Part shown: one piece after another, positions 3,306 to 7,710 of the stretch
Numbering within the stretch: the stretch's first letter is position 1
Layout: each line of letters opens with the position of its first letter
Origin: Limisphaerales bacterium
Lineage (GTDB): Bacteria > Verrucomicrobiota > Verrucomicrobiia > Limisphaerales > UBA11358
DNA length: 64,000 nucleotides
Direction of reading: 5' to 3'
NCBI GenBank assembly: GCA_003134375.1
Contig: PLAY01000065.1
Span: 158 to 64,157, forward strand
Position numbers and translations under genes: made by a program
Notes under the pieces: generated by a model
Seen by the model: the letters and a program-made list of their open reading frames with translations, nothing else
What the model was told of the DNA's origin: nothing
Databases searched by the model: none

Positions 3306-3491
3306 ATGAGCGACAAGCAACTTGCCTTGAAAACGATTGAGCGCCTGCCCGACGACGCGAGTTTGGATGCCATCGCGCAACGGTTGGAATTCGTCGCCGG
3401 AATTCGCAAGGGCCTGGATCAAATCAAAAAAGGCGAGACCGTGCCGCACGAAGAGGTCAAACGCCAACTGGCGACATGGCTTTCAAAATAA
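3306..3491 (+). CDS. type II antitoxin (ParD/addiction-module antidote-like, family unresolved)
   Basis: 61-aa ORF overlapping the downstream ParE-like toxin by 16 nt. Small helical acidic protein with an ERLPDDASLD motif. Confidence 0.65.
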   Translation: MSDKQLALKTIERLPDDASLDAIAQRLEFVAGIRKGLDQIKKGETVPHEEVKRQLATWLSK

Positions 3492-3790
3492 TCTGGTCGG
3501 AACAGGCGCGGGAGGATTTGCGGGAGATCGTTACTTTCATTGCTCTCGACAATCCGACTACGGCTGAGTCTTTTGGATATTTGCTGATGACGAAGGTGGA
3601 TGCGCTGGCGCAATTTCCACGATTGGGACGGGTTGTGCCGGAAGAAGATGATGAAGATATTCGAGAAATCATTTTTCGTTCATATCGGATTGTTTATCAG
3701 GTGATTGAGAAACAGCAGGTTGTGGCCATCGCGCGGATCTGGCACGGTGCGCGGGGCGAGCCTGAAATTCCTGAGCGGTTGAAATTTTAA
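3476..3790 (+). CDS. RelE/ParE family toxin
   Basis: 104 aa. IIWSEQAREDLREIVTFIALDNP...FPRLGRVVPE...IREIIFRSYRIVYQV......IARIWHGAR matches the ParE toxin pattern. Confidence 0.8.
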   Translation: MAFKIIWSEQAREDLREIVTFIALDNPTTAESFGYLLMTKVDALAQFPRLGRVVPEEDDEDIREIIFRSYRIVYQVIEKQQVVAIARIWHGARGEPEIPERLKF

Positions 3791-5008: not shown

Positions 5009-5647
5009 ATGAATCATTGTTCCTATTGTGGAAAGGAATATGCCGATGATGTCATTGTTTGTCCGGTTGACGGGCGGCCGGTCATAAACCAGGAGGAAAA
5101 ACAAGGAAAGTTCGCGGCCCAACCTAAAGCCACTAAAACAGCATTCAATGTCAAACTGGTTTCTCCCCTTTCGTCCGCCGGCAAATACCGGGTTTTTGTT
5201 GAACGGAGCGATCTGCTTTTCATTCAGGTTGAGGGCGGATCAAGATCCATTTTGGAAGCGGCGGCTCCTTTTATCGGCCCGGCTGGCAATATAATTCCAC
5301 TGACCCTGTGGCTGTTCGGCAAAAGAAAAACCAAAGCGAAACTCCAACGTCTTGAAACAGGCGACCCGGAGGAATTGCTTCGCGAAAGCGAAAATAATTT
5401 CAAGTTGAACCTGGCCGAAATTCGCGACGCCGCCATCGAAGCCCCGGCTTTTTTTCAGACCAGCGGAAAAGCCGGGCGGCTGAACTTTTCAGTGCGGCAT
5501 GGAGAGAAAATCAAGTGCGAGTTTGATAATGCCACAGAAATGAACAATGCGATTCGCTTGCTCGCCCCGCTGTTGTCTTCAACTTTGAAAGTGAACGTGG
5601 AATGGAACGGCGAAAAACAACGATTTGAAAGAAAGAAAACGATTTGA
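5009..5647 (+). CDS. hypothetical protein with N-terminal zinc ribbon
   Basis: The ATG at 5009 gives MNHCSYCGKEYADDVIVCPVDG (CxxC...CP). I do not recognise the remaining ~190 aa. The track start at 5000 is a TTG overlapping the lysC stop. Confidence 0.6.
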   Translation: MNHCSYCGKEYADDVIVCPVDGRPVINQEEKQGKFAAQPKATKTAFNVKLVSPLSSAGKYRVFVERSDLLFIQVEGGSRSILEAAAPFIGPAGNIIPLTLWLFGKRKTKAKLQRLETGDPEELLRESENNFKLNLAEIRDAAIEAPAFFQTSGKAGRLNFSVRHGEKIKCEFDNATEMNNAIRLLAPLLSSTLKVNVEWNGEKQRFERKKTI

Positions 5648-5675
5648 CCCGACGAATCCATACTGCTATCTTTAC

Positions 5676-5750
5676 AAGGTGAATCGCAATTTGAATCTGA
5701 ACCTGCTGCTAAACGTGCTGCGGTTGTGCCGCGCGGCGGTTGGGTTCTGA
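5676..5750 (+). promoter_or_regulatory. candidate Leu-rich leader peptide ORF for leuA attenuation
   Basis: AAGGTG (5676-5681), then TTG 5691 (or in-frame GTG 5679) and a stop at 5748-5750. The peptide is (MNRN)LNLNLLLNVLRLCRAAVGF with 6-7 Leu codons, including CTG CTG CTA at 5703-5711. It is followed by an antiterminator/terminator pair and lies upstream of leuA. Confidence 0.4.
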
Positions 5751-5770
5751 TTGCGTTCGAATAATTTGAG

Positions 5771-5803
5771 AACCCCACTGCCAGACGGCGGTGGGGTTTT
5801 TTG
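5771..5803 (+). terminator. rho-independent terminator
   Basis: AACCCCACTGCC (5771-5782), loop AGAC, GGCGGTGGGGTT (5787-5798). This is a 12-bp stem with one G-T pair, running into a six-T run (5797-5802). Confidence 0.8.
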
Positions 5804-5806
5804 CTT

Positions 5807-6034
5807 TTAACCACGAATGAACACGAATAGACACGAATGGCAAAAGCCGGAGCCGGCGGAGCGCGGCTGTGTCCCGCAAAGCGGGATCAGCCGCAGCGCG
5901 TCCACTTGCAGAGAAGTCTCACGCAAGTTCCAACGCTTCAACCGCAGCGTGGCTGCTGCGACTGGTGCTATGCACACCGTCGCGCTCCGGCGGCGCATTT
6001 TATCCGTGTCCATCCGTGTTTATCCGTGGTTTAA
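5807..6034. repeat. TTAA-ended inverted-repeat element (CCACGRAT family), copy E1
   Basis: Left arm TTAACCACGAATGAACACGAATAGACACGAATGG. Right arm TATCCGTGTCCATCCGTGTTTATCCGTGGTTTAA. The arms are reverse complements apart from A/G transitions. About 160 bp of GC-rich core. Lies between the terminator and the leuA start. Confidence 0.75.
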
Positions 6035-6054
6035 TTCCGTCAACACCTGAGTTT

Positions 6055-7710
6055 ATGCACAAACAACCGTCAAAAAAATACCGGCCGTTCCCGGCGCCCA
6101 GCCTGCCCGACCGGCAGTGGCCGAACCGCGTCCTTACCCACGCGCCCATCTGGTGCAGCGTGGACTTGCGCGATGGCAATCAGGCGCTCGCCGTGCCCAT
6201 GAACGTCGGCCAGAAGCTCGAATTGTTCCAGACGCTCGTGAAAATTGGCTTCAAGGAAATCGAAATCGGCTTTCCGGCCGCGTCGAACACGGAATTCGCA
6301 TTCAACCGCCGGCTCATCGAGGAAAATCGCGCGCCGGACGACGTGTGGCTCCAGGTGCTCGTGCAGGCGCGTGAAGAGTTGATCGAGCGCACGTTCGAAT
6401 CACTCGTCGGCGCGAAGAAGACCATCATCCACCTTTACAATTCCACTTCGCCCGCCCAGCGCCGCGTTGTGTTCGGGAAATCGAAGCAGGAAATCATCGA
6501 AGTCGCCGTGCAGGGCGCCAAGTGGGTCCGGGAGCGATTGCCCCGGCTCAAGGGCACGAAGGTCATGCTCCAATATTCCCCGGAGAGCTTCAGCTCCACC
6601 GAGGTCGAATTTGCCCGGGAAATTTCCGAGGCGGTCATGGCGGTCTGGCAGCCCACGCCGCAGCGAAAAATGATCCTGAACCTGCCCGACACCGTCGAGA
6701 TCGCCACCCCGAACGTCTATGCCGACCAGATTGAATGGATGTGCCGGAACCTCAAAAACCGCGAGTCGCTCATCATCAGCCTCCACGGGCACAACGACCG
6801 CAGCACGGGCGTGGCGGCGACGGAGCTGGGCCTGCTCGCCGGCGCGGACCGCGTCGAAGGCACGCTCTTCGGCAACGGCGAGCGCACCGGCAATCTCGAC
6901 ATCGTCACCGTGGCGCTGAACTTGTACATGCACGGCGTCCATCCCGGACTGGATTTCAGCGACCTGAATTCCATCATCGAGGTCTATGAACGGTGCACGG
7001 GCATGACGGTGCCGCCGCGCCATCCGTACGCGGGCGAACTCGTCTTCACCGCGTTCAGCGGGTCGCACCAGGACGCCATCCGCAAGGGATTGCACGAATG
7101 GAAAGAGGGCAAACGCGAACACTGGGACGTGCCGTATCTCACCATTGACCCGACGGACATCGGGCGCGAATACCGCGAGATCATTCGCGTCAACAGCCAG
7201 TCCGGCAAAGGTGGCGTGGCGTATTTGTTGGAGAGCCAGTTCGGCATCGAGTTGCCCAAGGACATGCAGCGCGAGTTCGGCCCGATTGCCAATGACGAGG
7301 TGGACAAGCTTGGACGCGAAGTCACCGCCGCCGAATTGAAGGCGATGTTCTGGCACGAATACATCGAACGCAACAAGCCATGGCAGCTCAAGCGTTTTGA
7401 AACCGAGAGCAAAAACGGCGTCGTCCGTTGCCGCGCAAAATTTTTGCGCGACGGCAAGCCGGTCGAACTTTCCGGCGAAGGCAACGGCCCGCTCGCCGCG
7501 CTCGTCCACGGTTTCAGCAAAATCGGTGTGTCGCGTTTTGAAATTGCCAATTACAGCGAGCATGCTTTGAGTTCCGGCGAAGAGGCCGTGGCGATTGCTT
7601 ACATTCAAATCAAGCACGCCGATGGCAAAACCCGCTGGGGCGCGGGCGTGGACACGAACATCGAGCTTGCCTCCGTGCGCGCCGTGTTGAGCGCACTGAA
7701 CCGGTCGTAA
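6055..7710 (+). CDS. leuA: 2-isopropylmalate synthase (long form)
   Basis: Start at ATG 6055 (MHKQPSKKYRPF). WCSVDLRDGNQAL, HGHNDRSTGVAATELGLLAGADRVEGTLFGNGERTGN, and a C-terminal LeuA dimerisation/regulatory domain. The track ORF start at 5869 runs through the repeat and is rejected. Confidence 0.93.
   Translation: MHKQPSKKYRPFPAPSLPDRQWPNRVLTHAPIWCSVDLRDGNQALAVPMNVGQKLELFQTLVKIGFKEIEIGFPAASNTEFAFNRRLIEENRAPDDVWLQVLVQAREELIERTFESLVGAKKTIIHLYNSTSPAQRRVVFGKSKQEIIEVAVQGAKWVRERLPRLKGTKVMLQYSPESFSSTEVEFAREISEAVMAVWQPTPQRKMILNLPDTVEIATPNVYADQIEWMCRNLKNRESLIISLHGHNDRSTGVAATELGLLAGADRVEGTLFGNGERTGNLDIVTVALNLYMHGVHPGLDFSDLNSIIEVYERCTGMTVPPRHPYAGELVFTAFSGSHQDAIRKGLHEWKEGKREHWDVPYLTIDPTDIGREYREIIRVNSQSGKGGVAYLLESQFGIELPKDMQREFGPIANDEVDKLGREVTAAELKAMFWHEYIERNKPWQLKRFETESKNGVVRCRAKFLRDGKPVELSGEGNGPLAALVHGFSKIGVSRFEIANYSEHALSSGEEAVAIAYIQIKHADGKTRWGAGVDTNIELASVRAVLSALNRS

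Follow-up and report, generated by a model that had tools for sequence, protein, structure and literature searches.

Leader-peptide attenuation is best known from Proteobacteria. In the window analysed in this study, which is the whole 64,000-nucleotide stretch of DNA, a short leucine-rich open reading frame (ORF) and a hairpin with a T-run lie upstream of leuA, and the locus raises the question of whether the two form a leucine-sensing switch or have another origin. Classical attenuation had been proposed in a first-pass annotation. Since the mini-ORF and its competing hairpins recur before leuA throughout one order of Verrucomicrobiota, a textbook leucine-sensing switch is very probable. We estimate the probability at about 0.87 that the element is a ribosome-mediated leader-peptide transcription attenuator, which would make leuA expression dependent on charged tRNA-Leu. 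The classical reading was supported by the ORF, its leucine enrichment, the helices, the linkage to leuA and a sister element with a valine run before ilvB.

The leader ORF extends from 5679 to 5750 on the plus strand, comprises 23 codons plus a stop codon and reads VNRNLNLNLLLNVLRLCRAAVGF. It has GTG at 5679, TTG at 5691 and TGA at 5748-5750. Six or seven Leu codons with a consecutive trio had been reported; we counted seven, which span 5691-5726 on the plus strand (TTG 5691, CTG 5697, CTG-CTG-CTA 5703-5711, CTG 5718 and TTG 5724) and are the putative regulatory codons. The ORF is followed by an intrinsic terminator, AACCCCACTGCC / GGCGGTGGGGTT plus T6, with a 15-bp GC-rich stem between 5768-5782 and 5787-5801. 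Folding confirmed that this is a strong terminator, as had been described, and the T6 ends at 5802. The segment GGCGGTTGGGTT (5735-5746) was identical to the terminator 3' arm GGCGGTGGGGTT at 11 of 12 positions, as had also been noted. The ORF, the Leu codons, the terminator and the antiterminator segment were thus all found where the annotation had placed them. The regulated gene would be leuA, encoding a 2-isopropylmalate synthase of 551 aa (6055-7710, plus strand; Pfam HMGL-like, IPMS_D2 and LeuA_dimer).

The leuA loci of 40 relatives were fetched. With nhmmer, 29 of 30 loci proved to carry a homologous leader 5' of leuA, and in most of these leaders the peptide could be recognised. A covariance model, R1, was built from the alignment of these 29 leaders (A1). 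R1 matched 132 of the 151 sampled genomes of the order and 97 of its 107 genera, and the public labels of the genomes carrying the motif were mostly Limisphaerales, Verrucomicrobia subdivision 3 or Pedosphaera. A comparison of the leuA upstream regions of related genomes had been suggested as a check, and it showed that both the Leu mini-ORF and the alternative helices are kept. One hundred leaders were then aligned to R1 (alignment A3). A LeuA-type gene came directly next on the same strand in 98 of them; in the two exceptions, one gene would lie off the contig end and the other leader was a weak second match from the first alignment, A2. The downstream genes were of two LeuA types, one sharing 75-90% and the other 26-28% identity with the LeuA of the window, and therefore the element tracks leuA function and not one gene lineage. 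One genome (G142; loci L201 and L202) carried two strong leaders of 85 and 82 bits, one before each LeuA type, so both paralogues appear to be under the same kind of control there.

We examined the RNA structures that the leader can form. Region 1, the 5' arm of the 1:2 hairpin, lies at 5681-5709 on the plus strand and holds the first Leu-codon cluster, as given by the minimum free energy (MFE) fold, the RNAalifold consensus and the pair counts. Region 2, the 3' arm of this hairpin, lies at 5731-5758, includes the stop codon and has the 5735-5746 segment as its core. Region 3 is the terminator 5' arm GAGAACCCCACTGCC (5768-5782), and region 4 comprises the terminator 3' arm GGCGGTGGGG and the T-run at 5797-5802 (5787-5802 in all); regions 2 to 4 are also on the plus strand. 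The MFE fold of the 163 nt from 5648 to 5810 consisted of the long 1:2 hairpin and the terminator, at -61.9 kcal/mol. Its z-score against dinucleotide shuffles was -4.9, and no shuffle was equally stable. The RNAalifold consensus of the 29 leaders was exactly the same pair of structures.

Compensatory changes accompany the conservation of all three pairings, 1:2, 2:3 and 3:4. In A3, which was fitted to the 1:2 plus 3:4 structure, 94.4% of the cells of this fold were paired and 20 of its 25 pairs showed compensatory changes, against 39-58% paired in controls in which the partners were slid by 1-3 columns. The terminator helix was paired in 98.5% of cells over the 100 leaders, with compensatory changes in 7 of 11 pairs, and the 1:2 helices were 85-97% paired, with such changes in 13 of 14 pairs. 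The 2:3 helix was not used in fitting the alignment. The first-pass annotation had stated that 5735-5746 can pair with the terminator 5' arm as an antiterminator, and the relatives bear this out by pairing and covariation. In the window, the partner of 5735-5746 is 5771-5782; for the helix scored in the alignment, 5735-5746 with 5772-5782, 88.4% of cells were paired over the 100 leaders and 6 of 11 pairs were compensatory, compared with 24-62% paired in slid controls. One of these pairs depends on the register, as the C-run has three or four bases. Doubly changed cells in the 2:3 helix numbered 30, against 16.4 ± 2.8 in shuffles, and the 2:3 duplex had a mean energy of -17.2 kcal/mol, against -10.6 kcal/mol with region 2 shuffled (100 leaders). 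This test is not fully independent, because regions 2 and 4 are necessarily alike and the helix was taken from the window.

In the window itself, the energies were -27.0 kcal/mol for 1:2, -20.8 kcal/mol for 2:3 (fold of 5731-5782) and -23.0 kcal/mol for 3:4. Equilibrium folding preferred the terminator over the antiterminator, even when region 1 was deleted. For antitermination to occur, the choice must therefore be a kinetic one, in which 2:3 pairs before region 4 has been transcribed.

We also examined the sequences upstream of the leader ORF. A promoter scan of the window gave TTGACC-17-TATCTT, with a -35-like hexamer TTGACC at 5644-5649, which overlaps the TGA (5645-5647) of the upstream gene, and a -10-like hexamer TATCTT at 5667-5672, which ends 6 nt ahead of the GTG start; both are on the plus strand. 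A strict TAnnnT -10 box was present in 55 of 100 relatives, as compared with 3-8 in control windows, and it ended 6-7 nt ahead of the start codon in 40 of those 55 leaders. A TTGACA-like hexamer (at least 4/6) was found 17 nt 5' of the -10 box in 39 of the 55. Alignment of the 60 nt upstream on the start codon revealed an A-rich block (-45 to -41), a -35 box resembling TTGAC (-36 to -31) and a TAnnnT -10 box from -13/-12 to -7. From these positions we infer that transcription starts at about 5679, which would leave no room for a Shine-Dalgarno sequence.

The start codon had been given as either the TTG at 5691 or the GTG at 5679. Our results favour GTG: the start column of the 100 aligned leaders contained 78 GTG, 22 ATG and nothing else. 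The alternative, a TTG 5691 start with AAGGTG as its Shine-Dalgarno sequence, was rejected, since neither this sequence nor its spacing is conserved and GTG/ATG at 5679 is invariant; TTG 5691 is a conserved internal Leu codon of the leader ORF. The Shine-Dalgarno-like AAGGTG itself, which had been placed at 5676, lacked conservation in relatives and overlaps the start codon, and it probably sits at or before the 5' end of the transcript. Because the -10 box lies 6-7 nt before the start codon and a conserved Shine-Dalgarno sequence is missing, the leader mRNA is probably leaderless, where a GUG start on a leaderless mRNA is an assumption for this phylum. The fixed promoter-to-start spacing gives an initial view of how promoters are used in Verrucomicrobiota, and possibly of leaderless translation there.

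The proposed mechanism is as follows. The promoter belonging to the element (TTGACC 5644, TATCTT 5667) would start transcription at GTG 5679 or immediately beside it, and a ribosome would translate the 23-codon leader ORF. When Leu-tRNA is plentiful, the ribosome would reach the TGA at 5748 and cover region 2 (5731-5758), so that regions 3 and 4 could form the terminator (5768-5801 plus the U-run) and transcription would stop before leuA. If no ribosome is loaded, regions 1 and 2 would pair and the terminator would form too. When Leu-tRNA is scarce, the ribosome would stall within region 1, at the Leu codons of 5691-5726. This would leave region 2 free, and the core of region 2 (5735-5746) would pair with region 3 as the latter emerges. 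With 2:3 paired, no terminator would form and RNA polymerase would continue into leuA. Ribosome stalling, the kinetic competition between hairpins and the response to leucine are inferred parts of this scheme.

What the switch would sense is indicated by a sister element. The second-best R1 match in the window genome was on the minus strand of another contig (C18:21445-21588, 36.7 bits, E = 2e-4). This element (locus L032/L264) encodes a Val-run leader, MLKNFSQAVKLAVVVVVSDAVGAC, followed by a hairpin and a terminator, upstream of the acetolactate synthase gene ilvB, and its promoter reads TTGACC-N16-TAAATT. A Val-run mini-ORF preceded ilvB in 29 of 30 related loci, with the window genome's own locus counted. 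The ilvB and leuA leaders thus have a common architecture, in which the run changes from Leu to Val with the pathway. No other single result argues as strongly as this switch that it is the codons that are sensed. Since R1, built from leuA leaders alone, scored the ilvB leader at 36.7 bits, the two leaders may be diverged copies of one ancestor. In a genome-wide scan for leader peptides (His, Trp, Phe, Thr and others), 16 candidates passed the filters and only the ilvB leader was convincing; this crude scan is insensitive, because its filters missed the leuA leader, for which the longest-ORF rule took the TTG start.

The Leu-to-Val switch also bears on a second explanation, in which the leader ORF is translated and regulatory and acts in a non-classical way, through Rho or another factor, leuA translation, mRNA stability or a signal other than Leu-tRNA. 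There is a precedent in Streptomyces coelicolor, where mutational data reviewed in PMC1262725 were at odds with classical attenuation for the attenuator-like leaders before ilvB and leuA, and this calls for some caution with the classical reading. The greater stability of the terminator over the antiterminator at equilibrium would also be in keeping with such a mode of action. However, all four classical regions are present in the element, the U-run terminator is conserved (98.5% paired), the 2:3 alternative covaries and the codon identity follows the pathway from Leu to Val. We therefore regard a non-classical mechanism as improbable, and prefer classical attenuation.

A further explanation is a structured RNA switch responding to a protein, a tRNA or a metabolite, in which the open frame would be incidental. 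In its favour, the structure is both strong and conserved. In addition, the Leu codons lie inside helices, so that part of the conservation could be structural, and coding and structure are inseparable by sequence conservation alone. The reading frame was examined in A3. A homologous ORF was present in 100/100 leaders, with lengths from 17 to 25 codons. Despite this range, the interval separating the start and stop columns, taken without calling ORFs, was a multiple of 3 in 97 of 100 leaders, whereas the lengths of the neighbouring spacer from stop codon to terminator arm fell 30/30/40 modulo 3 and had no periodicity. The stop codons (TGA 56, TAG 30 and TAA 14) shared one aligned position, and the start column held only GTG and ATG, as described above. 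Leu made up 29.7% of the leader peptides (n = 100), as compared with 8.8% for four genes of the window and roughly 6% for the remaining two frames of the leaders. A run of at least three Leu occurred in 86 of 100 peptides, and the Leu residues formed two clusters, LNLxLLL and ALLL.

These results suggest that the leader ORF behaves like a translated frame, and the comparative signature is strong. The 23-codon ORF deserves to be called as a gene. Searches of Rfam also told against the RNA switch. In a cmscan of 5400-6300 with E up to 10, no Rfam family matched at its gathering score and no T-box or riboswitch family was among the matches. The sole fitting match was Leu_leader (RF00512), which at 20.8 bits and E = 0.12 was below its gathering score of 50. 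Two MIR1437 matches were set aside, as they reflect the long hairpin of an inserted repeat downstream of the terminator. An RNA switch with an incidental frame is thus very unlikely, and somewhat more so than a non-classical mechanism.

The choice of Leu codons in the leaders was also recorded. In the 100 leaders, CTG made up 63% of Leu codons, CTT 18%, TTG 10% and CTC only 2.5%, unlike the four window genes, in which CTC was the top Leu codon (39%). This bias could be due to structure, as CUG would pair with CAG/CGG in the 1:2 stem, or to the sensing of one tRNA-Leu isoacceptor.

The C-terminal AAVGF of the leader peptide is highly conserved, which raises the idea that the 23-residue peptide is itself functional in trans and that its place before leuA is secondary. 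Leader peptides that act in trans have been described elsewhere, such as peTrpL of Sinorhizobium (PMC7298713). However, the rest of the peptide is free to vary except for the Leu runs, and the conservation of AAVGF is explained by RNA constraints, because the region-2 strand encodes it and pairs with both region 1 and region 3. A trans-acting peptide would also add to attenuation and not exclude it. As a replacement for the attenuator, we consider it a remote prospect.

The flanks of the element were then examined. Of the 38 loci whose upstream flank reached 1 kb or more, only the window's own contained the hypothetical gene at 5009-5647, which was absent from the 37 others. lysC lay upstream in 5 of the 38, and the nearest upstream open frame was in one orientation in 20 loci and in the other in 18. 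The earlier caveat that the hairpin merely terminates this gene, with the Leu-rich ORF arising by chance, has a negligible likelihood despite its place about 120 nt past the gene's stop codon on the same strand, since it is contradicted by the unconserved upstream gene (with upstream frames split almost evenly by strand) and by the linkage of an element with its own promoter-like site to leuA, including the second LeuA type.

A second caveat had concerned a 228-bp repeat between the terminator and leuA. The repeat is present, but it is a lineage-specific TTAA insertion that leaves the attenuator intact. By comparison with close relatives and by folding, it is a TTAA-bounded inverted-repeat element outside the attenuator at 5807-6034, a 224-bp insert with TTAA ends at 5807-5810 and 6031-6034, just after the attenuator T-run. 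Close relatives read GGGTTTTTTGTTTTAAC after the terminator (TTTTAAC), and in most of them the leuA ATG follows about 42 nt later. The inserted repeat folds as a hairpin of -120 kcal/mol, and a crude scan found no sigma-70-like promoter within it. This hairpin element may alter leuA expression. About 20 partial matches to its arms were seen elsewhere in the genome. Of some 58 related loci that share the window's LeuA type, about 20 had 70-220 extra bases at the same spot, which looks like an insertion hot spot.

We compared the element with known systems. The enterobacterial leu attenuator (leuL-leuABCD) resembles it in having a leader ORF with a Leu run, 1:2, 2:3 and 3:4 hairpins, an intrinsic terminator before leuA and the same logic. 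The enterobacterial leu leader carries four consecutive rare CUA codons, whereas the Verrucomicrobiota leaders use two Leu clusters, mostly of CUG and CUU. The Verrucomicrobiota element also has GUG/AUG about 6-7 nt past the -10 box without a conserved Shine-Dalgarno sequence, and it controls leuA and not a demonstrated leuABCD operon. It functions like the family Leu_leader (RF00512) but is not a member and has no detectable homology to it. The E. coli trp attenuator (trpL) shares the four-region geometry, with regulatory codons in region 1 and the stop codon next to region 2. In trp, too, the terminator is favoured at equilibrium and antitermination is kinetic, so the two systems are alike in having a terminator more stable than the antiterminator and a kinetic choice between them. 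They differ in amino acid and sequence, and also in the 1:2 hairpin, which in the verrucomicrobial leader is far longer and more stable (-27 kcal/mol).

Outside Proteobacteria, leader peptides have been predicted before ilvB and leuA in Actinobacteria (PMC1262725), and a short ORF, the ilvB-II uORF, precedes ilvB in Corynebacterium (PMC10272879). These leaders are similar in being short ORFs with runs of Leu or Ile/Val/Leu before leuA or ilvB, some with terminators. The actinobacterial LEU element of leuA was described as a pseudoknot between the Leu codons and the Shine-Dalgarno box of leuA, with no obvious terminator (PMC1262725), whereas the Verrucomicrobiota element has a canonical U-run terminator and an antiterminator. 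In Staphylococcus aureus, the ilv-leu genes are reported to have a leucine-rich attenuator peptide that acts together with CodY (PMC5794164). It is a similar non-proteobacterial case of a Leu-rich leader peptide on branched-chain genes, with a different phylum and sequence.

A search of the full-text literature found no leader-peptide attenuation described for Verrucomicrobia, with the 2010 survey of Lopatovskaya et al. (cited in PMC4833913) falling outside this search. The leuA leader is without a covering Rfam family, and we found no leucine-sensing switch of this type published for the phylum. Our analysis places leader-peptide attenuation, strongly conserved, in the PVC group, and it gives leuA, and by extension ilvB, a well-supported cis-regulatory annotation in a large, mostly uncultured soil and freshwater order.

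The distribution beyond the order was also examined. With strict filters, R1 had zero matches among 150 genomes from elsewhere in the phylum. When the second LeuA type was inspected in other orders of the same class (loci L308-L322), its upstream regions showed unrelated-looking Leu-rich mini-ORFs, often with a terminator, such as MKILDLLLALEALLLGGRPGSGS, MVNFPAILSEKALLLLSNVMAGC and MTLLLNLLALRLLALPLRDQKG. No Leu-rich mini-ORF was seen upstream of the window's LeuA type in small-genome families of other orders. Because Leu-rich mini-ORFs with terminators occur there, the absence of R1 matches beyond the order points to sequence divergence and not to a lack of the mechanism, and Leu leaders may be widespread in Verrucomicrobiia past the reach of R1. 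A broader proposal would combine leaderless leaders starting at GUG/AUG, in which ribosome loading at the 5' end provides the coupling, with one ancestral element behind the leuA and ilvB leaders and with diverged forms in the other orders of Verrucomicrobiia; we lean only slightly towards it.

Several public records of metagenome-assembled genomes (MAGs) with unrelated labels contained near-identical copies of the leader, and these labels look wrong, or the contigs look mis-binned. The leuA leader can serve as a taxonomic marker, and R1 can be used for annotating leaders in MAGs. Nine MAG loci labelled Bifidobacteriaceae, Candidatus Acidoferrum, Sulfopaludibacter, Acidiferrales, Pseudomonadales or Akkermansia had full leuA leaders that scored 76-144 bits with the Limisphaerales model.

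Two further observations were made in the window genome. A third, weak R1 match (C141:495-622, E = 0.12) was discarded, since it is a plain terminator downstream of an ORF and lacks a Leu frame. At 3306-3790, between the genes for homoserine dehydrogenase and aspartate kinase, two overlapping ORFs of 61 aa and 104 aa form a small antitoxin/toxin-like pair.
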